A stretch of DNA of 64,000 bases from an uncultured Dehalococcoidia bacterium. GTDB taxonomy: Bacteria; Chloroflexota; Dehalococcoidia; Bin125. Shown piece by piece: positions 22,561-54,045 of this stretch (its first letter is position 1; each line of letters starts with the position of its first letter). Location of the stretch: positions 8,851 through 72,850 of the forward strand of contig CAYFZI010000002.1 of assembly GCA_964347635.1 (NCBI GenBank), given 5' to 3'. The notes under the pieces were generated by a model that was not told the DNA's origin, searched no databases, and was given only the letters and a program-made list of their open reading frames with translations. Both the position numbers and the translations under genes were made by a program.

Positions 22561-22952
22561 GGCGGCCAGGCCGCCGGGCGGCCGCGCGCTGATCGCAAGA
22601 TCGGCTCGAGGAAAGTCCGGGCTCCTCGGGACAGGGCGCTGGGTAACTCCCAGGCAGGGCGACCTGACGGAAAGCGCCACAGAAACATACCGCCGCGTGC
22701 GCTGCGGCGCCGCGCGGTAAGGGTGAAATGGTGCGGTAAGAGCGCACCAGCGGCCGGGCGACCGGCCGGCTGGGCAAGCCCCGCCCGGAGCAAGACCAAA
22801 TAGCGAGATCGCGGTGCAGCCCGCTGCGCCGCAGGCGCGTCCCGCGCCGTCTCCGGGTAGGTCGCACGAAGCGGCGGGCAACCGCCGCTCTAGATGGATG
22901 GCCGCCGCCGCAGCGCGGTTACAGAACCCGGCTTACAGGCGGCCTGGCATTC
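22561..22952 (+). ncRNA. rnpB: RNase P RNA (bacterial type A)
   Basis: Universally conserved blocks are present: GGAAAGTCCGGGCTCC, ACAGGGCAGGGTAACTCC-like, GGAAAGTGCCACAGAAA-like, GTAAGGGTGAAATGGTGCGGTAAGAGCGCACCAG, CAAGACCAAATAG, ACAGAACCCGGCTTAC. P1 pairs gccaggccgcc (22565-75) with ggcggcctggc (22938-48). Confidence 0.85.
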
Positions 22953-23047
22953 GAACCGCATTCGGCCGCGGCGGCGGCCCTACAGTGCAGGACAGTGCAG
23001 GAAATCAGACGAGAAACGGGGCAAGGGAACTGGGCAGGAATGCATTG

Positions 23048-24589
23048 ATGGCCGCCAAACTGCTCGCCGACCTGCTGCGCCGTACCGCTCACCGACACGC
23101 CGCCGGCCCGCGGCCCGAGTCGCTCAGCGTGTCCGGCGTCGGCCAAGACTCGCGCACCGTCGGCGCCGGCGGCTGCTTCACGGCGATCCCCGGCTTCAGC
23201 GTCGACGGCCATCAGTATCTGGCCTCCGCGATCGCCGCCGGTGCAGCTGCGGTTGTTGTCCAGGCCGATCGCCGCGCTGTCTGGGAGCCGCTGCTCGAGC
23301 ACGCTGCTGAGGTTGCAGTGATCGAGGTCGAGGACAGCCGCACCGCGCTGGCCGACCTGAGCGCGGCCTGGCACGATTTCCCGGCGCGCAAACTCACTGT
23401 CGTCGGCGTCACCGGCACCGACGGCAAAACCACCACCGCCCACCTCTCCCACGCGCTGCTGAGCGCCGCCGGCCACCGCACGGGGTTGATCAGCGGGGTT
23501 GAATTCAACGTCGGCGGCGAGTGGTCGACGAACGAGAGCGGCGAGACCACGCCCGAAGCCGACGTGATCCAGGCGCGGCTCGCCGAAATGGCTGCGGCGG
23601 GGCAGACGCACGCGGTGATCGAGGCCAGCTCGCACGGCCTCGAGCTGCAGCGCGTGCGCGGCTGCGAGTTTGATCTGGCTGTCTTCACCGGGCTCTCCGA
23701 CGATCATCTCGATTTCCACGGCACGCGCGAGCGTTACCTCGAGGCCAAGCTGCGCCTGTTCCGCGCGCTCGACGACGCGCAGCCGGTCGCCCGGCCGCGC
23801 CCGCGCTTCGCCGTGGTGCGTGCTGAGGATCCGCTGCGCGGCACGATCGCCGCCGCGCATCGGCAGCCTACGATCAGCGCCGCCAGCACGGCGGGCGGTG
23901 GCGGCGATGTATCCGTCCAGCCGCTTTCGCAGGATGCGGCCGGGGCGGAGCTGCGCGTCGTCACTCCGGCCGGCGCGCTCGCTGCACGGCTGCCGCTGCC
24001 GGGCGATTACAACCTCGGCAATGCAGCGCTGGCCGTTGGTGCGGCCTGGGCGCTGGGAGCGGGCCCCGCCGCGCTGCAGCGCGGCTTCGCCGAGGCCCGC
24101 CCGGTGCCCGGCCGGATGCAGAGCATCGACGCGGGTCAGCCGTTCGGCGTGATCGTCGATGCGGCCGCCACCGGCCCCGCGCTGCGCGCCGCTCTCGATG
24201 CCCTACGCCCCCACGTTGGCGGCCGCTTGCTGCTCGTCTTCGGCGCTGCCGGCGATCGCGATCCGGCGCGGCGCACGGCGATGGGGGCAGCGGCGGCCGC
24301 ACTCGCCGACCTTAGCTTCATCACCAGCGAGAATCCCCGCTCGGAGGATCCCGCTGCGATCGTCGCGGAGATTGCCGCCGCGATGCGCGGCGCCGGCGCG
24401 GGAGATCGCTTCGTTGAGCAGCCCGACCGCCGCGCGGCGATTCGGCTCGCCTTCGCCGAGGCGCGGCCCGACGACCTCGTGCTCATTGCCGGCAAGGGCG
24501 CCGAGCGGAGCCTGATCTTCGCCGACCGCAGCGAGCCCTGGGACGACCGCGCCGCCGCCCGCGAGGAACTGCAGCGTCTGCTCGGCTGA
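23048..24589 (+). CDS. murE: UDP-N-acetylmuramoyl-L-alanyl-D-glutamate--2,6-diaminopimelate ligase (MurE)
   Basis: GVTGTDGKTTT P-loop and the ENPRSEDP (DNPR) MurE motif. The start is ATG 23048, downstream of rnpB; the longer track ORF runs through rnpB. Confidence 0.9.
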   Translation: MAAKLLADLLRRTAHRHAAGPRPESLSVSGVGQDSRTVGAGGCFTAIPGFSVDGHQYLASAIAAGAAAVVVQADRRAVWEPLLEHAAEVAVIEVEDSRTALADLSAAWHDFPARKLTVVGVTGTDGKTTTAHLSHALLSAAGHRTGLISGVEFNVGGEWSTNESGETTPEADVIQARLAEMAAAGQTHAVIEASSHGLELQRVRGCEFDLAVFTGLSDDHLDFHGTRERYLEAKLRLFRALDDAQPVARPRPRFAVVRAEDPLRGTIAAAHRQPTISAASTAGGGGDVSVQPLSQDAAGAELRVVTPAGALAARLPLPGDYNLGNAALAVGAAWALGAGPAALQRGFAEARPVPGRMQSIDAGQPFGVIVDAAATGPALRAALDALRPHVGGRLLLVFGAAGDRDPARRTAMGAAAAALADLSFITSENPRSEDPAAIVAEIAAAMRGAGAGDRFVEQPDRRAAIRLAFAEARPDDLVLIAGKGAERSLIFADRSEPWDDRAAAREELQRLLG

Positions 24590-24652: not shown

Positions 24653-26002
24653 ATGGACGACGCGCGCTACCAATCGCTTGTGGAGGACGACCTCCAACAC
24701 TGGGTGCACCCGCTCTACCACCCGAGCGGCCATCGGGAGCCGCTGTTGATCGAGCGGGGCGAGGGCATCTACCTCTACGGCGCCGACGGGCGGCAGTACA
24801 TCGACGGGTTGTCGGCGCTCTGGAATGTGGCCGCGGGCCACGGCCGGCGCGAGCTGGCCGAGGCCGCCGCCGAGCAGATGTCGACGCTCGGCTTCAGCAA
24901 CTCCTACGAGGGCTACACCAACGAGCCGGCCATCCGCCTGGCGGCCAAAGTGGTCGAGCTCGCCTACTCCAATATGCAGGCGCTCTATTTCACGAACTCC
25001 GGCTCGGAATCGAACGAGACCAACTTCAAGGCCGCGAGGTTTTACTGGAGCCGCCTCGGGCGGCCCGAGAAGCACAAGGTGATCACGCGCGTCGAGGCGT
25101 TCCACGGCAACACGATCGCGATGACCTCCGCGACCGGCATGAAAGTGTTCCACGGCAACTTCGGGCCCAGAGTGCCGAACATCATCAACGCCGATACGCC
25201 CGATGCGGTTGCCTCCGGCGGCGGGCGGATCGATGCCGGCAACGTGATGATCGACAACATCGTCGCGGCGATTGAGCGCGAGGGCCCGGACACGGTCGCG
25301 GCGGTGATCGCGGAGCCGGTGCAGGGCGCCGGCGGCGTCTACCCGCCGCCGGCGGATTACTTCGCGCAGCTGCGCGATGTCTGCGACCGCTACGAAGTGC
25401 TGCTGATCGCCGACGAGGTGATCACCGGCTTCGGGCGCACAGGCAAGTGGTTCGCGCTCGAGCATTTCGATGTGCAGCCGGACATGATGTCGGTCGCCAA
25501 GGCGATCACCAGCGGCTACGTGCCGATGGGCGCGGCGGTTTTCTCGCGGCAGGTCCACGAGGTGATCACCGGCGACCCGGACGGCCAGAAATTCATGCAT
25601 GCCTACACCAACTCCGGGCACGCCAGCGCCGCCGCCGTGGGCCTGCGCAACCTGCAGATCTTCGAGGACGAGCGGCTGGTCGAAAATGCCGCGGCGCGCG
25701 GCGCGCAGCTGTTGAGCGGCCTGCAGCGTCTCTCCGAGCATCGGCACGTCGGCAATGTGCGCGGCCTCGGTTTCATGTGCGGCTTCGACCTGCTGGAAGA
25801 TCCGGACAGCGACGCGCCGTTCGAGCTCGGGGCCGGGATGGGGCTGAAGCTGCTCCAGGCCTGCCAAGCGCGCGGGCTGATTTCGCGCGTCCGCGGCGAC
25901 GCCTACCTGCTCGCCCCGCCGCTGATCGCCAGCGCGGCGCAGGTCGACGACATTCTGACGATCGTCGAAGACGCCGTTCGCGAGGTCACCGCATCGGCGT
26001 AG
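24653..26002 (+). CDS. Class III pyridoxal-phosphate aminotransferase (BioA-like / omega-transaminase family)
   Basis: YFTNSGSESNETNFKAAR, AFHGNT, LLIADEVITGFGRTGKWFA and the SVAKAITSGY (Schiff-base Lys) motifs. GAGGAGG SD. Adjacency to birA suggests a biotin-pathway role, but specificity cannot be told from sequence alone. Confidence 0.85.
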   Translation: MDDARYQSLVEDDLQHWVHPLYHPSGHREPLLIERGEGIYLYGADGRQYIDGLSALWNVAAGHGRRELAEAAAEQMSTLGFSNSYEGYTNEPAIRLAAKVVELAYSNMQALYFTNSGSESNETNFKAARFYWSRLGRPEKHKVITRVEAFHGNTIAMTSATGMKVFHGNFGPRVPNIINADTPDAVASGGGRIDAGNVMIDNIVAAIEREGPDTVAAVIAEPVQGAGGVYPPPADYFAQLRDVCDRYEVLLIADEVITGFGRTGKWFALEHFDVQPDMMSVAKAITSGYVPMGAAVFSRQVHEVITGDPDGQKFMHAYTNSGHASAAAVGLRNLQIFEDERLVENAAARGAQLLSGLQRLSEHRHVGNVRGLGFMCGFDLLEDPDSDAPFELGAGMGLKLLQACQARGLISRVRGDAYLLAPPLIASAAQVDDILTIVEDAVREVTASA

Positions 26003-26039
26003 CCCCGCGCCGCCTCCAATGCTGCTAGACTGCGGGGCA

Positions 26040-26195
26040 AGAAAGGAGGTGATGCACGTTGGGACATAGTCAACTTTCGCCCAGCGGTAGGTTCCGAAGC
26101 GTAGTGGGGGTGGGCGCCTCCTAACCGCAGCATTCGCCCTATCGACTGGGCAGAAGTACAGCAACCCCAAGGCGCCCACCTTGGGGTTGTTCAAT
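26040..26195 (+). promoter_or_regulatory. Structured leader in the bioA-birA spacer: extended anti-SD complement, 21-codon TTG ORF, mutually exclusive hairpins and a terminator-like stem
   Basis: AGAAAGGAGGTGAT (26040-26053) is complementary to the 16S 3' tail over about 12 nt. A TTG-started ORF runs 26059-26124 (peptide MGHSQLSPSGRFRSVVGVGAS). GGTGGGCGCC (26109-18) can pair with GGCGCCCACC (26171-80), which overlaps the hairpin aaccccaagg/ccttggggtt (26163-26189) and is followed by GTTGTTCAATT. Confidence 0.35.
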
Positions 26196-26239
26196 TCCGG
26201 CGGCATGGACGCCCGCCGGCATTGAGAGATCGAAGGCCG

Positions 26240-27049
26240 ATGGCCGACGTCGACCCGTTGCCGCCCGCCAAGCGTCTCCAGACTGCGCAGGTCAGCGAGG
26301 CTCTGCGGACCCGCGCCGTGGGGCGCGATCTGCACTATCTGCGCGTCACCGACTCCACGATGGCGGATGCCCGCCGCCTCGCAGAGGAGGGCTGTCCGCA
26401 CGGTGCGGTCGTCGCCGCCGACGAGCAGACTGCCGGCCGCGGCACCAAAGGCCGCTCGTGGGTCTCGCCGGCGGGCCAGAGCATCCACACGACGCTGGTC
26501 GTGCGGCCCGACGCAGAACAGATGAAGCGCCTCAGCATCGTCACGCCTGCGGCAGCGGCGCGCGCTGTCGAAGAGGCGGCGGGCATCGTTCCCGCGATCA
26601 AGTGGCCGAACGATCTAGAGATCGGCCGGCGCAAGTTCGGCGGCATCCTGATCGAGGGTGAATGGCGCGCCTCCGGCCCCGCCTATGCCCTGATCGGCAT
26701 CGGCATCAACGTGAACTTCGACCCCGCGCCGCACGCCGCCCAGATCGACCGTCCGGCGACCAGCCTGATGATCGAGCTAGGCCGCAAGCTCTCCCGCGAA
26801 GCCGTCCTGGCCGCGCTGCTCAACGCCTTTGAGGCGGCCTATGATCGCGCCGACTCCGACGAGGTCTTCGAGGCCTGGCGCTCGCGCCTCGACACGCTCG
26901 GCCGCTCAGTCCAGATCATTGCCGGCGGCGTTGTCCAAGTTGAGGGCGTCGCCGAGGACGTCACCCGCAGCGGCGCGCTCCAAGTCCGTGATGCCGGCGG
27001 CGCCGTCCACACCATCGTCGCCGGCGAAGTCTCGGTGCGCGACGCCTAA
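26240..27049 (+). CDS. birA: Biotin--[acetyl-CoA-carboxylase] ligase (BirA, catalytic plus C-terminal domains, no N-terminal HTH)
   Basis: ADEQTAGRGTKGRSW (GRGRxGR biotin-binding loop), KWPNDL and GILIE motifs. ATG 26240 follows GAAGG. Its stop overlaps the convergent stop of the giant gene. Confidence 0.8.
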   Translation: MADVDPLPPAKRLQTAQVSEALRTRAVGRDLHYLRVTDSTMADARRLAEEGCPHGAVVAADEQTAGRGTKGRSWVSPAGQSIHTTLVVRPDAEQMKRLSIVTPAAAARAVEEAAGIVPAIKWPNDLEIGRRKFGGILIEGEWRASGPAYALIGIGINVNFDPAPHAAQIDRPATSLMIELGRKLSREAVLAALLNAFEAAYDRADSDEVFEAWRSRLDTLGRSVQIIAGGVVQVEGVAEDVTRSGALQVRDAGGAVHTIVAGEVSVRDA

Positions 27050-30000
27050 CCTGTCTCATCCAACGTCATCTCCCCCAGCGCCATCGGCAGCTCGACCTTG
27101 AGTGGCGGCGCCCCCATACCGCGAACGATCAGCACGCGCTCCGCGTGCTGCAGTTCGTACGGGCCGCCCCATGAATCGCGGGCGGCGACATAACGCCACC
27201 GCTTCACGCTTGCTGTGGGCACGCCGATTCCCATCACCGAGGGATCGATCGACAGCGCCAGCTCGCGGGCCGGCAGGCCGCTCTCGCCTTGAAACACGAT
27301 CGGCGTGACCCCGCGGCGGAGCGTGAGGCCGTAGGTCGGCATCTCGGCGATCGCGATCATGCTGGGCGCGCGGACCCGCAGCGCGATTCCACCGTCGATC
27401 TGCTCGACCTCCACCTGCCGCCAGGTTGCGCTGGCGAGGTCGAACACGATGAACGCCAGCGGTGCGCTCTGCGGCGCCAACGGCAGGCGCACGCTGAGAT
27501 CGGCCGATCCATCGAGCGGTGTGCCGCGCTCGTCGGTGAGCGCGATTCGCCAGGCGCTGAGGATTGATGCCTGCTCCCCATCCGGATCCCATGTCAGCGC
27601 TGCAATGTCGTCGAAGATTTCATCGAGCAGCACGCGGCGTGTGAGCGGCCGCACCTCGATCTGCACCGCGGCGGCGCCCGCCGGCGGGGCGGCGGCGTGC
27701 AGCGTGAAGGCTGGGAGGCCGTCGTCGTGCTGCGCTGCAAACCCCTCGTGCGCATCCCCCCGGCCCGTCTGGACCGTCGCGTAGACGCCGCCGCGCCAGG
27801 CGAACTCATGCACCAGCTCGCGCCGCAGCGCGATTGCCATGGGTTGGGTGGTGTCGCCGCGGGCGCGGATATGCGCGGCCGCAATGCGGCCCTCGGGGGT
27901 GGGCGCGACGAGCATTTCGTTTGCGGCCGGCAGCGTGAATCCTGCAAGGCGCCGACCAGTTGCGTCGTGCACGCCGTTGGGCAGGCGCGGTTCATAGCTC
28001 AATGTGACCGCGTCGCGCGCCGTGACTGGGGTTTGCAGCGTCAGCGTTGCGCGCGTCTCACGCCACTCCACGCCGATCACGCGGATCGTGCGCCGCCCTG
28101 CTGTCACTGTGAACCATTCGGGCTCCGCGCCGCCGGCCGCCACGGCTTCGCTGAACTGCACTTCGAGTATGGTCTCGGCCGCGCTCGCCGCTACGGCGAC
28201 GGGGCCGAGCTGAGTGTAGTTGGGGGCCAAGACGGAGGCGGCGTCGACGCGGTGGCCGGCCGCGCCGCGCAACGCTCCGGTCTCGCGGTGGCGGGCGAGG
28301 TAGGCAACGATCACGTCGCTGCTTTCGGGCAGCCCCGGCTCTTCGAGCAGCAGGGTCACGCTGCCCGCGCGCGAGACGAATACCGCTTCGACAGCGGCGC
28401 TCGATTCGGCGGCGGCGATCCACCACGAGCGCGGCGGTACGTGATCGGGATCGAGCGGGCGATCGAAATGGATCAGTACGACTCGGCCGACGGCGACAGC
28501 GCGCTCCATGATCGGAGCGCGGCCGCGGTCTGTTAGGGCGATCGTGAACGCTGCTGTCGAGTTCCCGTGACGGTCGAGGATGGGGCGGGAGCTGTTTGGG
28601 GAATAGGTCAGACGGATTCTGCTGTCGGGCCCGGCGCCTGGTTCGTGCAGCCGCAGGCGCAGCTCAGTGCCGCTGATGCCCAACACTTCGAGTACCGCAG
28701 GCGCGCGGCTGAGCGTAAAGTCGGCGGCCGCCGGCAGGCGGCTCGGGTCCAGCGGTTCATCGAACGTTATTACTAGCTCCGTAAGCCAAGACTCCGCGCT
28801 GACCGCCTGCGGCGGCCGCGCCGTTGTGTTTTCTGCTGCAACCGCGAAGGCTTCGACAACATTGCCGGTTGGGTCCGCGAGCCCGCCTGCGTCCTTTGGC
28901 GCATACTCCACGCGAACTGCAGAGCCCTCAAGCAGGCTGCGTACGAGCGTCAGCACCAACTCTGCACCCGATATCTGGGCGCCGATCACTGCGGCGCGGC
29001 CCTGTCTGTCGCTAACCGTGAAGTGCTCAAAATCTGCTGCGCCGGACAATTCCTGGTCGAATCTCAGTGTGATAGTGCTTCGATCGGCCGCGGCCGCCGT
29101 GATCTGCGGCGCGGTATCGGTCGTGTTCTGTACATCGATCTCGAATGCGCGCACGGGCCGTCCTGCGGCGTCGAGCAGCGCAGCTTCTTCGGGCGGTTCA
29201 TATGCAGCACGCACAGCGGCGCCTTCAACGGCCGCCGCGGCCAACTCAAGCGCGACAGCCGCGCCCGCTGCCTCCGCTGATACCGTGTGCAACCGCTCCG
29301 CACCGGTCCAGACTGCGAACGCGTCCGCCGTCAGCGGTGCGTCGCTCAATAACGCATCGAACTCAATCTCCAGCGAGACGCCGTCAACCTGCGCTGAGAC
29401 GGGGGCGGCGGGCGTTGCATTGCTCACCTCGATCGGATCGAACGAGGCGGCCAGGTTCGCAGGCACGGATGTATCTCGAAGCGGCGAGATCGTCTGCATC
29501 TGATACTGCAGCTGTACCAGGTCGCTGACCGCAACACTCTGCAGCAGCTCAATCCGAACCGCGCGTTCCTCGACCTCTGAATCGCGGAACGGCCGCGCCG
29601 CTCCGTTCACCCACACCCGAAACGCGTTGAGCGGCTCGCCGAAGTCGTTGAGATACGGCGGCCCCGGCCCGGCCGCGAGCGGTTGGTCGAACAGCAGCGT
29701 GATGACGTCCTCCTCGACGGCTGCGCTTTTCATCACCGGCGCCGTATCGGTATGGTTCGCAACCGTAATTTCGAAACCGGCGACAGGCAGCTCTCCCTGA
29801 TCGGCGTCCAGCAGCCGGCCGGCTGCTTCGGGCGGCGCGTAGTGCAGCACGACCTGATCAAGCTCATGCGCGGTCGGCCCGCCGAGGTTCAGCGAAACCG
29901 TTGCGCCTGCGGTCGTGATTGACTCGATCTGCGCCTCGCTGCCGTCGAGCGTGAACCCTCCTGGAGCGGCCATTGCGGAAGGGCCGATCTGTACAGCCTC

Positions 30001-33000
30001 GCTCATCTGCAGGGTGAGCGAGGCTCCGGTCACGTCGATCTCGGCCGACTGCGCTGTGGGAGCGGTGTCCGTCGTATTTTGTACGTCTATCGCGAACGCA
30101 GCGGCGTCGTTGCCTGTCAGATCGCGTATACGATTGCCTGGCCCGATCGAATACGAAAGCCGAACAGCGGCGCCGTCCGCTATCGATGCTGAAAGAGCGA
30201 TGTGTACCTGGCTGCCGTCGAGCGTTACTGTCTGTGCAGCGGGGCCGTCATCGAGCGAGAATGAGGCGGCCGCGGGCACCGAGGTTGGATCGAGCTGTTG
30301 ATCGAACACGATCGTCAGCGACTGGCTGTCGACGGCAGCGCTCACGGCCCGCGGCGGAGTGTCGGTGAGGTTCGCCAGCGCAAGATCGGTGATCGATGCT
30401 GGGTTGCCCTGCTGATCGCGCAAGTACTGCAAACCGGGCTGCACGGCGATCTCCTCCGCTGTCGGCGCTGAGTAGTTGAGTGTAACCAGTTCTCCTTCCG
30501 CAACCGCCGGATCCAGTGTCAGCGCCAGCACGCCTGCGCCCGATGCTGCGTCGTTGCGAACCTGAACGCTCTGAACCGCTGCGGCCGTGCCCGACACTGT
30601 GAAGTCGGCGGCGGGCGGGACATGTTCCGTATCAAGCGGTTGATCGAATGCAACGGCCGCAGCATCTGCGTCCACGCTGCCGCTCACCGCGCTCGGCGCT
30701 GTATCCGTTCTGTTCTCGGCCGCCGCTGCGAACGCCTCGACGGCGTTGCCTTCGGGATCTCGAAGCGCGGAGTCGCTCTCTCCTGGGTCGTACTCGATCG
30801 TGATCGCTGCCCCTTCCTGCACGTTGGCGCTGAAGGACAGGGCGACCACACCAAGCCCGCTTACAGGATCATTCCGAACCGCCGCGGCTGTTACTGCGGC
30901 GGCGCTGCCCTGAAGCGCAAACGATGCTGGATCTGGGTTGGCTGCTGTGTCTAGATCCTGGTCGAACGTGATTGCGGCGTGGTTCAGATTCACTTCCACC
31001 GCTGCGACCACCGGTATGGTGTCGGTCACATTTTCGATCATGAATCCGGGAATTGCCTCAACCGGCGCGCCGTTGACGCCCTGGAGGCGCGGCAGCTCAG
31101 CGGTCGGCGGGTCATAGAACAGCATGAGCGGAGCGCCTTCTCGCACCGGGGCTGCGAGACTCAGCGTCACCTCGCGCTCGTTCACTGCCGCACCTGAAAC
31201 TGTTGCGAAATTCACCGTGAACGCAGTGACCGGAGGTGCAGCCTGCGGTTCAAGAGCCGCATCGAAAGTGAGCACAATGGTGCTGAGATCTGCGCTGGCC
31301 GAAAGCAGCGACGGCGGGGTGCGGTTCTCTGCGTCGATCGGACCGAACGACGCTGTCGGCAAATCGGACAAGTCGCGCAGCCCGCCGCTCTTCGGCGCCG
31401 TATACGAGACCGCCGCATCGTCGGCAGCGGTCGCTGCTCGTTGGAGATTCAGGGCGACCAGTTCAGAATCAACCGCAGCCGCCGTTACGGTCACGACTTT
31501 GTTGGCAATCGAAACAGTGAACATGTTTCCGGTCAGCGGCGAGGCGGAGTCAAGCGGTTGATCGAATGTGATCGTTAGCACTTCGCCGTCAACCACGGCG
31601 CGGATCGGCAGCGCTGCGTAATCGACTGGATTGTCCGCGTTGATCGAGAACGCTGCAACCGGCAGCCGACCCTGGTCGGCGTCGCGCAAGGCGTTCGCCG
31701 CACCGGCAGTGTACGCGAGCGTGACGGCCTCGCCTTCCTGCGCCGAGGGTGCCAGCGACAGGGTGATCGTCTGGCCGCTAACAACAACGCTGCTAACTAG
31801 CGCATCCGTGCCGCCAAGCGTGAATTGGGCGGGCGGCGGCATGTCGGCAGGTTCTTCGCTCAGCGCTTCGCTGAAGGAAAGCTGGAGTGATGCTCCGTCG
31901 GCAGCGATGCCGGCGCTGACCGCGGACGGCGCGCTGTCAGTCTGGTTCACCAGCTCTTGGGTGAAAGAGGTGACTGCGTTGCCGCTGGTGTCTCTTAACC
32001 CGCCGCTGTCCGGCGCCGAATACTGCACACTGATCAAAACGCCGTCGGCGGCAGCCGGCATCAGTGCGAGCGTCACGGTTTGCCCCTCGACCGCCACGCT
32101 CTCGATACTCCTGCCTGTAACGGCAAAGTGCGCCGTGTCGGGCACCGCGGCCGCATCAAGCTGCTCATCGAACGTCAGCGTTAGTGCTGCCCCGTCTACA
32201 ACCGCCTGGGCCAACATGGGCGGGGTATCGGTCTGATTGTCTACGTCGGCGCTGAACGCTGCGGCCATGTTGCCGGTGGCGTCCTGCAGGGGCTCCTCGC
32301 TCGGCGGGGTGTACGCCAGTGTGACCGCTGCGCCTTCGAGTACTGCCTGTGCGAGCGTTAGCACCAATGCGCTGCTTGCAATCTGTATGCTCTCAATTGC
32401 GATCGCGTCCGGGCCGATGGTGAATGCCGTACCCGCCGGCACCTGCGCGGCGTCCAACGGCTGGTCAAACGTGACTTGCAGCTGTTTGAGGTTGACTGTT
32501 GCGGCGGTTACTACTGGTGCTGTATCAGTCTGATTGTCAACCATTCGGCCGCTGACCGCTCCGAATCGAACGCTGTTGCTGCCTGCGATGCCGCGCTCTT
32601 CATCCTCTGAAGGTTCGTAACTGATCTGGACAACCGCGGCTTCCACCGCGGCTGTATCCAGCGTGAGTTGAACCGTACGGCCGCTCACAAGTACAGTCGC
32701 CACAGCCGCGTTGGTGACGGTGAAATCGAGGGGCTCTGGCGTCACTGCTTCGTTCAGAGCCGTGTCAAACTCGAGCGTCAGTGCGGCGCCTTTCACGCTC
32801 GCGGCCGACAGCAGAGGCGGGCTGTTGTTTTCGACCGCCTGCTCGGAAATTGGCGCAACCACCGCACCTGCAGGTGTGCTCAGCGGCTTTGCTGTCGGCA
32901 GTCGATAGGAAATGGTCACCGCCTGATCACCTGGGATCGATGAAGCCAATTGCAATACAAGTACACCGTTTGCAACGGCGACGCTGTTTACAGCGGCTGT

Positions 33001-36000
33001 TGCGTCGCCGACGGCGATCGTGAACACATCCGATGCCGGCACGGAGTCTGCCGCTAGCGCTGCGTCGAACGTGATACGGAGCTCAGCGCCGTTGACGGCT
33101 GCTGACTGGAGCGACGGTCCTTGCTGCGCCCGATTGAGTACGCCGGTCGTGAAGCTCGGCGCTGCATTGCCCGTTGGATCCCTGAGCGGCTTGCTGCTGT
33201 CCGGCGAGTAGGTTAGTTGGAGCGCTGGGCCGGGCAGGACGCAGCAGGTGATTGTGAGCGTGACGATGTTCTCGGCCATCGCCACACCAGTGATGCTGGG
33301 CGCCGCCGCGCCTAGGCTGAACGCCGAGGCTGGAGGCGTTGAGGCTGTATCGAGATCCTGATCGAACACCACCTGCACAGATTGCTCGGCAGCCGCCGCG
33401 CTGACGACCGTCGGCGCAGTATCGGTATTGTTCGCTGCGCTGGCTGAGAATGCGGCAATGGCGAGGCCGTATTCGTCGAGCAACGGCCCTGTTGCCGGCG
33501 GTGTGTAGACGACCGATACTTCATCGCCTTCTTCAATCGCCGGTACTGCGGTGAGCAGTACGTTCGCGTGGCTGATTGCTGCGCTGGCCGGCTCCTGGCC
33601 GTTGATGCCAAATGCGCTCGTCGCGATGCCGGGCGCGGCGAACAGCGGTCGATTGAAGAGAAGAGTGACAGTGCTGCCGTCCGCGGCTGCGGAGCTCAGC
33701 GTTGCTGCATCCGGTGTGGCATTGGCGGCAGCGAGCGAAAAGGCAGCAAGCGGGCGCCCGTTCGCATCCTGCAGCGCATTTTCCTCGGGCACAGTGTAAG
33801 CAATCTGAACCGCTGCGGTTTGACGCACCGCTTGGGCCAACCGCAGGCTGAGCGTCGACCCCTTCACGCTGACGCTGGAGAGCGTTAGCGTGGCCTCGCC
33901 GCTGGTGACAGAAAATGCCGATACGCCGGGCGGCGAGCTGGCCTGCAGCGGGCTGTTGAACGCGATCTCAAGCGTCCAGCCGACTACCTCTGCGCTCATA
34001 GCCTGCGTAGCTGTTTCGTTGCGCAGTGTCAGAGGGTCGAACGACGGTGCGAGATTCGGCGGCTGCGATGTGTCCTGCAACGGTGAGTTCGTTTGCAGCT
34101 GGTACTGCACTTGGACGACTGCGGTTGGAGCTACTGCTGTAAGCAGCGTAATGATGATGCTGCGTCCATCGACCTCAATGGTTTGAAAGCCGACGCGGAG
34201 TTCGGCGACAGTGACTCGAAACGCGCTGAGCGAGCTGAGGCCTTGATCGAGCACCGGCGGTACAGCCGATGAGTCAAGCACCTGATCGAACGTCAGGGTA
34301 ATCGTGCTGCCGTCCACGGCACCGTCGACAACCGCGGGGGCGGTGTCTGTCTGGTTCTCTATCTGCAGCGCAGAGAAGGCCGGAACCACCGTTCCATTCG
34401 CGCCGCGCAGCGGTTCGGCGCCGGCTAGGACAGGCGAGTAAGAGACGCTGAGTGATACACCTTCCGAGGCTGGCGGCGTGATGGTCAAGACGACGGTTCG
34501 TTTCTGCACCGCGGCCTCAGCGGCGCTGCGGCCGTTGATCTGAAAAGCCGCTGCAGCCGGCGCAGAAGTCGTATCGAGGTCTGCGTCGAAGCTGATCGTC
34601 AGGGTGCTTCCATCGACTACTGCGGCGCTGGCGGCAGGCGCTGCGAGATTGTCGGCGCTGAGCGGACCGAATGACTCGACCGCGTTGCCTGTAGCGTCCA
34701 CCAGTAGCTTGTCCGTGTCTGGGCGGGTGTAGGAGACAGTCACAGCGGCATCGGCGCCAACGGCGTCCGCGAGGGTGAGCTCCGCCAGCTCAGCGGATAG
34801 CGCGACCGAGTCGATCGCGATCGTCTGGCCGTCGGCCGATACCGAGAAACTTGAGGGTAGGGGCTCCGAGCCGGCGTCCAGCTCTTGGTCGAATGTGATC
34901 GATACTTGGCGGCCGGTGACGGCCGCCGACAAGGGTTGAGGTGCGGTGTCAGTGATGTTGCTTGCCGTCGTCGTAAAGCCTGCTACAGCTGCGCCGTTGG
35001 CCCCCTGTAGTTTGGTCGTTTCGCCGGGTCTGTATTGAACGGCGACCGCGGCTCCTTCTGTGACCGGCTGCGCGGGCGTGAGCGTAACTTCAGCACCGCT
35101 GATCGTGAGCCCGACTGCCTGCTCATCATTGACGAGGAATGCGCTGGCAGGCGGTGCAGCAACGGAGTCCAGCGTGCTATCGAAGGTCAGCGTGACTGTC
35201 GAGCCGTTAGCAACACCGGACAGCAGGATCGGGGCTGCCGCCGCGGGCACCTGGAACGGATGGGCAGCGATCATCCCGACCAAAGGTCGAGAACCGCTTC
35301 GCCCGCGCAGCCGAGTTCCGCTGTAACGCAGCCACACCGTCTCGCTGCCTGGCAGCGCCGCGACCGGGAATGAGAGGGTTACGACCTGGCCGTCGATGCT
35401 CACATCCGCCGCTGCGGTGCAGTCTGAGTCGTCTGAATCCTCGGCCGGGCAGACTGTGAAATTATCGGCCGGCGGCTGGCGGCTTTCATCGAGTTCGACG
35501 CGGAAGGTGAGTTGAACGTCGGCGCCTTCGACAGCGAGTTCTGCAACGACCAGTTTGCTGTTGTTGTTGTTGAGCGACGATCGGCTGAATGCGGCGACGC
35601 GGGCGGACGGCTTCGTTTTGGTTTCGAGGCCGTTCGCGGCCGGCGGTGTATAGGCCAGGCCGGGGTCGTAGGAATGCCTCCAGGGCGGCATCGGCGGGAG
35701 GACGTGGAGCACGACCTGTCTTCCGTTGATCGTGATCTTGCGTACGGTGGTGCTGAAACCGGTGATATCGAACGCAGAGCCGTCCGGCACTACATTGGCA
35801 TCCAGCTCCAAGTCGAAGTCCAGCGTGATCGTGTACGCGTCGACCAATATTCCACTGACTTCAGGCGGCGGGCCGGGGGTCGTGATCGGTGTGAGCATGC
35901 CGTAGGCGGTGAAGGTGCGGGAACCGTCGCGCGATTGGATCGGGTCACCGCAGCCTGTACCGCTGCTGCAGTACTCGATAGTCGCTTCATCGCCCTGTGA

Positions 36001-36279
36001 TACGAATACCCCGAGCGTGAGCAGTATGCTGCTGCCCGCCACCTCGACTGCGTTCACTCTTCGCATGCGCGAGGAGCCGCCGGTGAAGACCTGGAAGGCG
36101 GAAGTCGGTGGTGTGGAGCTGGGATTCAGCTCCTCGCTGAACGTAAGTGTTGCGGTGTCTTCGACTATCGTTCCGCGCACAAAGGAGAGTGAATCGGACT
36201 GTGCAAGGAGCGCGCGGCCGGCGAGCAGCGCGAAGATCAGCAAGGCCAGCGCAACACCGAGCCGCTGCAGCGTTTGCAT
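27046..36279 (-). CDS. Giant secreted protein (3077 aa) made of 25 or more tandem, roughly 95-aa bacterial Ig-like repeats plus a distinct C-terminal region of about 600 aa
   Basis: N-terminal signal peptide MQTLQRLGVALALLIFALLAGRALLAQ. A recurring unit TLTFDxxLDxxSxPxxSAFxVxxxGxxxxVxSVxVxGxxVTLTLxxxVxxGxxVxVSYxxPxxxxLxDxxGNxxxxFxxxxxNxT is repeated along the chain. It is a single uninterrupted 9.2-kb ORF. Confidence 0.85.
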   Translation of the reverse strand: MQTLQRLGVALALLIFALLAGRALLAQSDSLSFVRGTIVEDTATLTFSEELNPSSTPPTSAFQVFTGGSSRMRRVNAVEVAGSSILLTLGVFVSQGDEATIEYCSSGTGCGDPIQSRDGSRTFTAYGMLTPITTPGPPPEVSGILVDAYTITLDFDLELDANVVPDGSAFDITGFSTTVRKITINGRQVVLHVLPPMPPWRHSYDPGLAYTPPAANGLETKTKPSARVAAFSRSSLNNNNSKLVVAELAVEGADVQLTFRVELDESRQPPADNFTVCPAEDSDDSDCTAAADVSIDGQVVTLSFPVAALPGSETVWLRYSGTRLRGRSGSRPLVGMIAAHPFQVPAAAAPILLSGVANGSTVTLTFDSTLDSVAAPPASAFLVNDEQAVGLTISGAEVTLTPAQPVTEGAAVAVQYRPGETTKLQGANGAAVAGFTTTASNITDTAPQPLSAAVTGRQVSITFDQELDAGSEPLPSSFSVSADGQTIAIDSVALSAELAELTLADAVGADAAVTVSYTRPDTDKLLVDATGNAVESFGPLSADNLAAPAASAAVVDGSTLTISFDADLDTTSAPAAAAFQINGRSAAEAAVQKRTVVLTITPPASEGVSLSVSYSPVLAGAEPLRGANGTVVPAFSALQIENQTDTAPAVVDGAVDGSTITLTFDQVLDSSAVPPVLDQGLSSLSAFRVTVAELRVGFQTIEVDGRSIIITLLTAVAPTAVVQVQYQLQTNSPLQDTSQPPNLAPSFDPLTLRNETATQAMSAEVVGWTLEIAFNSPLQASSPPGVSAFSVTSGEATLTLSSVSVKGSTLSLRLAQAVRQTAAVQIAYTVPEENALQDANGRPLAAFSLAAANATPDAATLSSAAADGSTVTLLFNRPLFAAPGIATSAFGINGQEPASAAISHANVLLTAVPAIEEGDEVSVVYTPPATGPLLDEYGLAIAAFSASAANNTDTAPTVVSAAAAEQSVQVVFDQDLDTASTPPASAFSLGAAAPSITGVAMAENIVTLTITCCVLPGPALQLTYSPDSSKPLRDPTGNAAPSFTTGVLNRAQQGPSLQSAAVNGAELRITFDAALAADSVPASDVFTIAVGDATAAVNSVAVANGVLVLQLASSIPGDQAVTISYRLPTAKPLSTPAGAVVAPISEQAVENNSPPLLSAASVKGAALTLEFDTALNEAVTPEPLDFTVTNAAVATVLVSGRTVQLTLDTAAVEAAVVQISYEPSEDEERGIAGSNSVRFGAVSGRMVDNQTDTAPVVTAATVNLKQLQVTFDQPLDAAQVPAGTAFTIGPDAIAIESIQIASSALVLTLAQAVLEGAAVTLAYTPPSEEPLQDATGNMAAAFSADVDNQTDTPPMLAQAVVDGAALTLTFDEQLDAAAVPDTAHFAVTGRSIESVAVEGQTVTLALMPAAADGVLISVQYSAPDSGGLRDTSGNAVTSFTQELVNQTDSAPSAVSAGIAADGASLQLSFSEALSEEPADMPPPAQFTLGGTDALVSSVVVSGQTITLSLAPSAQEGEAVTLAYTAGAANALRDADQGRLPVAAFSINADNPVDYAALPIRAVVDGEVLTITFDQPLDSASPLTGNMFTVSIANKVVTVTAAAVDSELVALNLQRAATAADDAAVSYTAPKSGGLRDLSDLPTASFGPIDAENRTPPSLLSASADLSTIVLTFDAALEPQAAPPVTAFTVNFATVSGAAVNEREVTLSLAAPVREGAPLMLFYDPPTAELPRLQGVNGAPVEAIPGFMIENVTDTIPVVAAVEVNLNHAAITFDQDLDTAANPDPASFALQGSAAAVTAAAVRNDPVSGLGVVALSFSANVQEGAAITIEYDPGESDSALRDPEGNAVEAFAAAAENRTDTAPSAVSGSVDADAAAVAFDQPLDTEHVPPAADFTVSGTAAAVQSVQVRNDAASGAGVLALTLDPAVAEGELVTLNYSAPTAEEIAVQPGLQYLRDQQGNPASITDLALANLTDTPPRAVSAAVDSQSLTIVFDQQLDPTSVPAAASFSLDDGPAAQTVTLDGSQVHIALSASIADGAAVRLSYSIGPGNRIRDLTGNDAAAFAIDVQNTTDTAPTAQSAEIDVTGASLTLQMSEAVQIGPSAMAAPGGFTLDGSEAQIESITTAGATVSLNLGGPTAHELDQVVLHYAPPEAAGRLLDADQGELPVAGFEITVANHTDTAPVMKSAAVEEDVITLLFDQPLAAGPGPPYLNDFGEPLNAFRVWVNGAARPFRDSEVEERAVRIELLQSVAVSDLVQLQYQMQTISPLRDTSVPANLAASFDPIEVSNATPAAPVSAQVDGVSLEIEFDALLSDAPLTADAFAVWTGAERLHTVSAEAAGAAVALELAAAAVEGAAVRAAYEPPEEAALLDAAGRPVRAFEIDVQNTTDTAPQITAAAADRSTITLRFDQELSGAADFEHFTVSDRQGRAAVIGAQISGAELVLTLVRSLLEGSAVRVEYAPKDAGGLADPTGNVVEAFAVAAENTTARPPQAVSAESWLTELVITFDEPLDPSRLPAAADFTLSRAPAVLEVLGISGTELRLRLHEPGAGPDSRIRLTYSPNSSRPILDRHGNSTAAFTIALTDRGRAPIMERAVAVGRVVLIHFDRPLDPDHVPPRSWWIAAAESSAAVEAVFVSRAGSVTLLLEEPGLPESSDVIVAYLARHRETGALRGAAGHRVDAASVLAPNYTQLGPVAVAASAAETILEVQFSEAVAAGGAEPEWFTVTAGRRTIRVIGVEWRETRATLTLQTPVTARDAVTLSYEPRLPNGVHDATGRRLAGFTLPAANEMLVAPTPEGRIAAAHIRARGDTTQPMAIALRRELVHEFAWRGGVYATVQTGRGDAHEGFAAQHDDGLPAFTLHAAAPPAGAAAVQIEVRPLTRRVLLDEIFDDIAALTWDPDGEQASILSAWRIALTDERGTPLDGSADLSVRLPLAPQSAPLAFIVFDLASATWRQVEVEQIDGGIALRVRAPSMIAIAEMPTYGLTLRRGVTPIVFQGESGLPARELALSIDPSVMGIGVPTASVKRWRYVAARDSWGGPYELQHAERVLIVRGMGAPPLKVELPMALGEMTLDETG

Positions 36280-45456: not shown

Positions 45457-45533
45457 TGGCGCCCCTGGGAGGACTCGAACCTCCAGCCTGCGGATTAGAA
45501 GTCCGCTGCTCTGTCCGGTTGAGCTACAGGGGC
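45457..45533 (-). tRNA. tRNA-Arg (anticodon TCT), CCA encoded
   Basis: The reverse complement is GCCCCTGTAGCTCAACCGGACAGAGCAGCGGACTTCTAATCCGCAGGCTGGAGGTTCGAGTCCTCCCAGGGGCGCCA. It forms a cloverleaf with 7-bp acceptor stem, anticodon loop CTTCTAA and T-loop GGTTCGAGTCC. Confidence 0.85.
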
Positions 45534-53865: not shown

Positions 53866-54045
53866 CGCAGAATCAGAGTGGGGCGCACGACGGGGAACCC
53901 GGTGCGAATCCGGGGCTGTCGCGCAACGGTGATCCGCAGCTCGCTGCGGTCAGCCCGAATACCGTCGGGGCGCCCACGCCAGCACACCGACTTCGCGTCA
54001 GGGTCGGGGCGTCCCCAAACGGCCCATCGAGGCCGTTTTCGCTGC
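53866..54045 (+). promoter_or_regulatory. Cobalamin (AdoCbl) riboswitch with a terminator-like expression platform
   Basis: AGAATCAGAGTGGG...GGGAACCCGGTGCGAATCCGGGGCTGTCGCGCAACGGTGA matches the conserved cobalamin-riboswitch core (GGGAA..GGTG.AA.TCC...CTG.C.CGCAAC.GT). A B12-box-like GTCAGGGTCGGGG and a hairpin aacggcc-catcga-ggccgtttt (54019-54045) lie upstream of a btuF-like gene. Confidence 0.7.

Follow-up and report, generated by a model that had tools for sequence, protein, structure and literature searches.

A conserved, apparently undescribed RNA element with a mini-ORF upstream of birA in Chloroflexota

The biotin-protein ligase gene birA of an uncultured Dehalococcoidia bacterium (GenBank assembly GCA_964347635.1, contig CAYFZI010000002.1) is preceded by an intergenic spacer that raises a question: does the spacer hold a device for the control of birA, or a small gene in its own right? 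The window analysed here is the stretch of 64,000 nucleotides (nt) of that contig in which the locus lies, and all positions refer to it. An initial annotation had read the spacer (26003-26239) as a candidate attenuator with a leader peptide or, failing that, as a small RNA or small protein. We find that ~26037-26190 on the + strand corresponds to a putative RNA of ~155 nt that belongs to a conserved and apparently undescribed Chloroflexota family. We propose, at roughly even probability, that this RNA is a switch operated by a translated upstream open reading frame (uORF), and that it serves as the birA leader in most lineages, including that of the window. The initial annotation is borne out in part: a structured + strand RNA with a leader-type open reading frame (ORF) lies directly upstream of birA and is kept in relatives.

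The spacer element and its family

At its 5' end the element carries a Shine-Dalgarno sequence (SD1), AGAAAGGAGGTGAT at 26040-26053 (+). It is complementary over 14 nt to the canonical 3' tail of 16S rRNA, which we take to represent this genome's own, and the match singled out by the initial annotation is thereby confirmed. The exact 11-mer AAGGAGGTGAT occurs only once in the 64-kb window; at up to one mismatch there are two sites, against 0.44 expected. A TTG at 26059 opens an ORF of 21 codons (MGHSQLSPSGRFRSVVGVGAS) that closes with TAA at 26122-24, just as had been annotated, and the distance from GGAGG to TTG is 9 nt, not the eight given. Two complementary 10-mers are likewise present, GGTGGGCGCC at 26109-18 and GGCGCCCACC at 26171-80. 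The terminal hairpin is perfect, with arms at 26163-72 and 26179-88; its loop has 6 nt (CGCCCA, 26173-78) rather than 7, and its stem extends to 12 base pairs (bp; 26161-26190). Folding of the spacer's + strand gives z = -3.38, with 0 of 200 shuffles as good; the - strand, at z = -1.15, shows nothing unusual. A - strand reading, in which the element would mimic the 16S tail, was rejected: that strand has no fold signal, and every member has its promoter, ORF and terminator on the + strand.

The element appears to have its own promoter. The sequence TGcTAGACT at 26023-26031 (+) resembles an extended -10 element, and its position is conserved in the lineage. Among 12 distinct lineage relatives, 11 have TGnTAnnnT 7-8 nt before (A/C)AG-AAAGGAGG, and the twelfth has TTGACA-17-TACCCT instead. 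Most members of the other subgroups carry TTGAC(A/G)-17-TAnnnT. Transcription would start at ~26036-26039 in the window and, across the family, probably a few nt before AAAGGAGGUGAUGC. At the 3' end, the terminal hairpin is terminator-like with a weak U-tract, GUUCAAUU, and it sits where other subgroups have canonical U-rich intrinsic terminators.

The element recurs well beyond this genome. A genome scan with BirA placed the window in Dehalococcoidia (Chloroflexota) and showed that three close metagenome-assembled genomes keep it upstream of birA; the SD motif is also kept in Tepidiforma and in one UBA6077 genome. Tepidiforma flava and T. bonchosmolovskayae (loci L017 and L018) are carriers in culture. 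BirA homologues at 59-92% identity led to 8 more distinct lineage relatives, all of which have the element. The SD, ORF, hairpin and complementary segments are kept in 11 of the 11 other distinct lineage relatives, which together with the window form the lineage alignment of 12 distinct sequences. The initial annotation had tied its proposal to the recurrence of the stems and the ORF in related genomes, and both do recur. In a metagenome scan, a pattern for SD and start returned at least 120 stretches, and family members were counted among the matches listed. By profile search (nhmmer), 48 members score at least 37.7, and unrelated genes with a strong SD at most 24.1, among the matches listed. 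Further, a covariance model (CM) built from subgroups E and F (R1) recovers 43 members, and a second, built from the window's lineage (R2), reaches other subgroups with full-length matches.

No known family accounts for these sequences in the resources that we searched. No Rfam 15 family matches the spacer, a comparison that the initial annotation had proposed: at the gathering threshold and at E up to 10, only two chance-level matches on the opposite strand appear. Rfam also gives no family in 14 member loci, and ARAGORN calls no tmRNA in the spacer. Signal recognition particle RNA, 6S RNA, tmRNA, raiA and Chloroflexi-1 were considered, and none was supported. Our searches of the literature on birA leaders, on Chloroflexi RNA motifs, and on uORF or kissing-loop terminators turned up no account of the element.

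Members range from 125 to 280 nt and share a common anatomy, in which AAGGAGGTGATGC is invariant (48/48). The 5' end is a perfect complement of the 16S tail over 11-14 nt, with the start codon 8-9 nt after GGAGG. Near the end of the ORF lies a second SD copy, SD2 (GGAGGUGAUGG-like), which is found family-wide. A CUAG-containing hairpin or its equivalent also belongs to the common plan, as does a strong terminal hairpin, with a U-tract behind it in most subgroups. A conserved motif of the form (A/C)UAGU(U/C)G or ACGUUGC is seen 8-14 nt past the start codon (for example window 26066-26078 and L093:1275-1290), and most members have an out-of-frame UAG inside this motif. Together with GCAAC before the terminator, the 5' motif forms the closing pairs of a long-range helix. 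We considered a CsrA-type reading of the GGA motifs and rejected it, as conservation of GGAUGG does not extend to subgroups G, T and W.

Signs of selection on translation and on two alternative folds

The mini-ORF (26059-26124, +) is conserved in frame, start and stop. In the lineage it has 21 codons and a UUG start at an SD spacing of 8-9 nt in all 12 sequences, and it ends in TAA (8), TAG (3) or TGA (1), always a stop. A stop after SD2, in frame with the conserved start, is present in 45 of 48 members, and the frame is kept over ORF lengths of 15, 17, 19, 21, 22, 23, 24 and 25 codons. The peptide does not look like the selected product, because variable columns within subgroups are spread over the codon positions as 71/83/80, with no third-position excess, because the peptides are unalignable between subgroups, and because a 28-nt stretch of the subgroup C ORF is invariant, with zero synonymous changes. 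The leader peptides show no codon runs, no enriched regulatory codons and no conserved composition; they are hydrophilic (rich in R, S, H, D and G) and 15-25 residues long. Exact copies are absent from a collection of 15 billion proteins, which is weak evidence given that gene callers skip such short ORFs. Translation of the ORF appears to be part of the function, and the peptide incidental to it. As a separate observation, in L090 (2150-2240, -), alone among the members, a 1-nt deletion shifts the conserved UAG out of frame, and the ORF continues for 100 codons; the cause is a sequencing error or else the decay of a solo copy.

The position of SD2 is also fixed. The distance from its end to the stop is 11 nt in 12 of 12 lineage members. 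A ribosome that terminates there would have SD2 8 nt upstream of its P-site codon, at the spacing that is optimal for an SD.

Two alternative folds can be drawn for the RNA. The closed fold of the window combines a helix, P1 (CGUUGGG 26057-63 : CCCAGCG 26080-86), whose first strand contains the start codon, with pairing between SD1 (26044-51) and an anti-SD mimic, CGCCUCCU (26115-22). In the open fold, a second helix, P-long (26079-91 : 26138-51), links the opening third of the ORF to the stretch that directly precedes the terminal hairpin, and the anti-SD mimic is instead taken up by SD2 in a hairpin at 26106-26122 (GGGGG 26106-10 : CCUCC 26117-21, loop UGGGCG 26111-16). Strand 26080-86 is common to P1 and P-long, so the initial annotation was right that mutually exclusive helices exist; the competitors are P1 and P-long, not an antiterminator and a terminator.

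Covariation supports both folds. Within the lineage, P1 is paired in 100% of cells, with pairs that vary as CG:8/AU:3 and GC:7/CG:3/AU:2 (n = 12). In 11 of 12 sequences P1 retains the start-codon U (U22) in a U.G wobble, although the competing downstream strand uses C, which pairs better. The family-wide equivalent of P1, GCGNAUGG:CCAUNCGC, is paired in 85% of cells of the CM alignment, against 31-72% in slid controls, and its variable pair is seen as GC:22/AU:4/GU:3/CG:2/UA:1. In most subgroups, the duplex of the SD1/start region with the middle of the ORF reaches z -2 to -5. P-long has 13 pairs in the lineage; 91% of its cells are paired, and in 5 pairs both sides have changed. Nearly all subgroups have homologous long helices at z -2 to -7, built from wholly unlike sequences. 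The stem of the SD2 hairpin (26106-10:26117-21) is paired in 100% of cells of the 12 sequences. Because one strand (26080-86) serves both P1 and P-long, and because the three strands covary (CG/CG/CG in the window, a CA/UG/UA type in L165, AC/GU/CC in L174), both folds are under selection, which is the signature of a switch. An RNAalifold run on a mixed-subgroup MAFFT alignment returned an empty structure, because the register of SD and anti-SD differs between subgroups; structure was then analysed per subgroup and with the covariance models.

Thermodynamic modelling with ViennaRNA suggests an order for these folds. In nascent RNA, P1 has P ~1 up to 26100 and the SD1:anti-SD pairing P = 0.98 up to 26125; the open fold is predicted once the 3' arm exists. 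The full-length RNA is predicted at -70.3 kcal/mol; forcing the closed fold raises this to -60.8 kcal/mol. P-long is part of this full-length minimum free energy structure, and the SD2 hairpin has P = 0.75. The same order, closed and then open, is also predicted for most family members. As modelled, the RNA is bistable, with its start codon either sequestered or exposed.

In subgroup C (L065, L153, L112, L159, L121, L102 and L140), the element is ~280 nt long and lies on contigs of 65-71% GC. There the segment UACCGUCCGACCUGCCGCCAGUAUCCGC of the ORF hardly varies, and no P-long can be detected.

The terminal hairpin and its loop are constrained as well. All 12 pairs of the stem are 100% paired, and 5 have changed on both sides (n = 12). 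The 10-bp pairing between 26109-18 and 26171-80, which the initial annotation had taken for an antiterminator, is conserved in the 12 lineage sequences over no more than its central 6 bp. On each side of that core, the two flanking positions fail in L174, L176 and L177, and in the same three sequences the top pair of the terminal stem changes from GC to CG, which keeps the hairpin. The central 6 bp coincide exactly with the loop of the SD2 hairpin (UGGGCG, 26111-16) and that of the terminal hairpin (CGCCCA, 26173-78). These loop-loop pairs are present in 100% of the 12 sequences, with the middle one varying as GC:7/AU:4/GU:1 and another as CG:11/UG:1, and both stems are 100% paired. Such a pattern fits a kissing-loop contact in which both hairpins coexist, and we find it in the window's lineage only. 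The comparison of stems and peptide for covariation, as foreseen by the initial annotation, thus supports the terminal stem, reduces the antiterminator to its core and leaves the peptide unconserved.

Proposed control of birA and the competing explanations

The gene that follows the element is birA (26240-27049, +), which encodes a group-I biotin-protein ligase. The product matches TIGR00121 at 150.8 bits (cutoff 83.1) and Pfam BPL_LplA_LipB and BPL_C, and it is without the N-terminal DNA-binding domain. Same-strand birA is the next gene in ~30 of the ~41 evaluable members, namely 22 from the metagenomes (among the matches listed), 7 genome loci and the window; in the further lineage relatives, birA is downstream in all. 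Upstream neighbours vary with the subgroup: a divergent rpsB, an aminotransferase, murE, a TPR protein, a dehydrogenase or an amidohydrolase. Because they differ in this way, the adjacency of birA is not mere frozen synteny. In the window birA starts 49 nt past the terminal hairpin; in relatives this gap is mostly 4-66 nt (median ~26 nt). Since a gap of this size is too short for a promoter of its own, birA is probably transcribed by read-through.

We suggest that the growing transcript would adopt the closed fold first and then, after the 3' arm appears, the open one. The mid-ORF strand would then join the segment before the hairpin and SD2 would capture the anti-SD, so that SD1 and the start codon are freed. 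A kissing contact between the loops of the SD2 hairpin and the terminal hairpin would form as well in the window's lineage. A ribosome that loads on SD1 and passes through the ORF would melt P-long, the SD2 hairpin and the loop-loop contact, and this remodelling would set the amount of expression that reaches birA by read-through. The analysis demonstrates the family, the helices with their covariation, the conserved frame and stop, and the position next to birA, whereas the transcript ends, actual translation, read-through into birA, the direction of control and the signal are inferred. As to the signal, translational status is more likely than an amino acid or biotin: an amino acid is unlikely because there are no regulatory codons, and a metabolite less likely because no conserved pocket is seen.

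Several results weigh against a translated switch dedicated to birA. In folding with ribosome occlusion, a check that the initial annotation had proposed, the terminal hairpin of the full-length RNA has P = 1.0 at every imposed ribosome position. Complementarity between SD2 and the terminator is at z ~0 family-wide. Ribosome position does not consistently change a metric of how far the 5' arm of the terminator is sequestered, and by the same metric birA-linked and solo members are not separated. Further, 11 of the ~41 evaluable members are solo, without birA downstream. Subgroup C is always solo and lies between a Fic/DOC gene and a convergent GHL10-like (GHL10/DUF4985) gene; the solo members of subgroup D come after murE, an aminotransferase gene and a PAP2 gene, with a GltD-like gene convergent to them; L060 is a further solo member. 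Because solo members exist, the core function of the family is not birA control alone. In subgroup B, birA starts 100-150 nt past a TATAAT or TATACT box and may have gained a promoter of its own. Within the spacer, a strict sigma-70 consensus scan finds no promoter, the putative one being non-canonical, and a terminator scan does not call the terminal hairpin, because its U-tract is weak. Lastly, all statements on structure and kinetics are predictions. A point of geometry may be set beside these: in E. coli, a ribosome that terminates can repress a terminator only if the stop codon is no more than ~20-30 nt away (PMC4824070), and the gap from stop to hairpin is 36 nt in the window and 14-18 nt in the smallest members only.

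The members without birA keep alive the alternative, named by the initial annotation, of an autonomous small RNA or small translated gene. We consider it possible, if somewhat doubtful, that the element is a self-contained, highly expressed small RNA (sRNA) with its own promoter and terminator, perhaps with a dual function as translated mini-ORF and riboregulator, or that its 13-nt SD1 and SD2 let it bind or sponge up 30S subunits. In that case birA would live on leak-through at the terminator, and no regulated coupling would exist. Such a gene would explain the solo members that have an intact promoter, ORF, folds and strong terminators and are then followed by convergent genes. It would also agree with the canonical U-rich terminators of most subgroups, with the lack of a conserved helix that competes with the terminator, and with the conserved, single-stranded-looking GCAAC/CUAGCAAC just before the terminator, though this segment also closes P-long. 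An autonomous gene fits less well with a same-strand birA that stays adjacent across BirA identities of 35-45% while upstream genes change, usually without room for its own promoter, or with a terminal hairpin that in the window's lineage has a poor U-tract and a loop under pairing constraint. A related proposal, that the 21-residue peptide is itself the functional product, strikes us as quite improbable. The perfect SD, the conserved start, frame and stop, and, in the window's lineage, a fairly constant N-terminus (MGHSQ.SP) with some synonymous AGU/AGC and CUU/CUC changes are what a small protein would leave behind. The peptides, however, cannot be aligned across the family save for residues that RNA motifs dictate, the ORF varies from 15 to 37 codons even inside one subgroup, and the even use of codon positions, the nucleotide-level invariance in subgroup C and, weakly, the empty protein search all speak against it.

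Two further explanations would keep birA under a dedicated leader. In classic ribosome-mediated amino-acid attenuation, as the initial annotation had it, stalling would let 26109-18 pair with 26171-80. The geometry is present in the sequence, the helix contains one compensatory change, and the antiterminator does reach P = 0.89-0.97, only in RNA that ends at 26182 with a ribosome held on 26040-26100. Forcing the antiterminator, however, costs 10.4 kcal/mol relative to the terminator state, and the terminator has P = 1.0 at full length. Of the 12 relatives, 3 lack the flanking pairs of the antiterminator, although the terminator stem covaries, and other subgroups have no equivalent helix. With codons that are neither repeated nor enriched, a peptide that varies freely, and a birA gene without obvious amino-acid logic, attenuation of this kind is extremely unlikely here; a kinetic role of the extended pairing as a nucleation site is possible. 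A metabolite riboswitch, for example for biotin or biotinyl-AMP, with the mini-ORF and SD elements as its expression platform, would suit the complex conserved architecture, with its alternative folds, long-range helix and loop-loop contact, and the consistent association with birA. We know of no natural biotin riboswitch, and the niche is open. Yet the most conserved nucleotides are those of the SD/start region and SD2, with no junction or pocket evident, and helix sequences and lengths vary freely over elements of 125-280 nt. No member is seen before genes of biotin synthesis or transport, solo copies exist and Rfam gives no match; a riboswitch is thus very unlikely.

To return to a switch read by translation, a bolder version makes the ribosome itself the ligand. 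The element would then represent a new class of ribosome-sensing switch that reads free-ribosome or initiation capacity, which we offer as a speculative and rather unlikely possibility. Its perfect SD of 13-14 nt, at the extreme 5' end, would capture the 30S subunit only after refolding from the closed to the open fold. The ORF, whatever its peptide, would be translated, and the ribosome parked at the stop by SD2 at the spacing optimal for the P site. Parking would melt the long-range helix and would also, in the lineage of the window, break the kissing contact that the terminator loop makes. If true, initiation capacity would be coupled in most lineages to birA and, through it, to biotinylation of acetyl-CoA carboxylase and lipid synthesis, and in other lineages the element would be a free-standing RNA that engages 30S subunits.

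How does the element compare with known systems? Like trpL, hisL, the pyrBI leader and the Corynebacterium ilvB uORF motif, it has a short, SD-led leader ORF, alternative helices and a hairpin before the gene, with the ribosome as the mover. Unlike these leader-peptide attenuators, it lacks a regulatory codon run and a conserved peptide, its competing helices govern access to the start codon rather than the terminator, the helix that would compete with the terminator is not conserved, and some copies have no downstream gene. A second comparison is with the uORF motifs (PMC11109978): both have a conserved in-frame start and stop, an associated SD, hairpins in which a stem encloses the stop, a terminator-like stem at the end and a consistent gene behind it. 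By the marks of that class, start, stop and SD are conserved and birA follows in ~30 of ~41 members, with the 11 solo members as exceptions; the element is thus not always before a gene, and part of the family would class as "sORF/sRNA" (small ORF or sRNA). For one uORF candidate of the Breaker laboratory, the fthC motif, the speed of translation initiation has been proposed as the signal (PMC11109978). The element differs from the fthC motif in sequence, phylum and downstream gene, and in having an SD duplicate before the stop, a bistable sequestration of SD and start, and a kissing loop.

Other likenesses are partial. Type I toxin mRNAs such as hok, tisB and Helicobacter aapA1 also have a small ORF with a strong SD, metastable helices that hide the SD, and long-range 5'-3' pairing. 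Here the predicted order is reversed, closed when nascent and open when complete, and the peptide is hydrophilic, short and unconserved. With SgrS/SgrT, RNAIII/delta-hemolysin and SR1/SR1P the element shares an independent promoter and terminator and a structured RNA with an embedded small ORF; their peptides are conserved and functional, whereas in this element selection seems to act on translation alone. ColE1 RNA I/II, the L2-L3 contact of the purine riboswitch and the kissing loop of the cobalamin riboswitch likewise bring together two loops through 6 complementary, covarying nt, and a kissing loop together with uORFs has been described (PMC11260477). In contrast to these kissing loops, one partner here is the loop of a terminal hairpin, and the other that of an SD-like/anti-SD hairpin that spans the last codons of a translated ORF. 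The building blocks of the element (leader ORF, SD sequestration, terminator and kissing loop) are therefore known, and it is their combination that is absent from Rfam 15 and from the literature searched. That combination joins a perfect 5' SD of 13-14 nt, a peptide-agnostic ORF, an SD duplicate at a fixed distance from the stop, two alternative folds backed by covariation and a contact with the terminal-hairpin loop.

To our knowledge, no birA regulation has been described where the biotin ligase lacks a DNA-binding domain. A conserved birA leader in Chloroflexota would be the first candidate regulator for such ligases. The element also offers an unusually clean natural case of an ORF selected for its translation and not for its product, joined to a switch in which SD, anti-SD and SD duplicate compete for strands and to a loop-loop contact with a terminator hairpin. 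Its small size and universal parts (SD, start, stop and hairpins) make it directly testable with reporters, and it could find use as a synthetic part. Further, the family adds to a very thin catalogue of regulatory RNAs in Chloroflexota.

Neighbouring genes and minor observations

The gene upstream of the spacer (24653-26002, +) encodes a class-III aminotransferase (Aminotran_3) and is syntenic in many relatives. It had been labelled bioA; it scores 334.2 bits against a TIGR00508 cutoff of 405, and generic aminotransferase models outscore bioA, so that this label does not stand. Between the terminal hairpin and the start of birA, the window has a second hairpin, UCAAUUCCGGCGG...CCGCCGGCAUUGAGA (26191-26225, +). 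This hairpin is not conserved, and the spacers of relatives at this place measure 15-110 nt and are unrelated. Elsewhere in the family, subgroup B (L067, L150 and L077) has TATAAT or TATACT right after the terminator (AACTTATAAT), and subgroup C adjoins gliding-type ABC transporter genes.

Downstream, birA faces a convergent ORF of 3077 amino acids (27046-36279, -), and the two 3' ends overlap by 4 nt. The predicted protein has 17 SWM_repeat stretches and Big_5 matches, and L176 and L177 have similar giant proteins in the same place. Further upstream, the window carries a bacterial class A RNase P RNA (22566-22951, +; 278.7 bits over the full model). A MurE ORF of 591 amino acids (22814-24589) overlaps this RNA, which implies that the true start of murE lies downstream of 22951. 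A partial cobalamin riboswitch aptamer is found at 53893-53988 (+; model positions 46-168), at 35.5 bits against a gathering threshold of 31.5. Both ARAGORN and Rfam call a tRNA-Arg with anticodon TCT at 45457-45533 (-).

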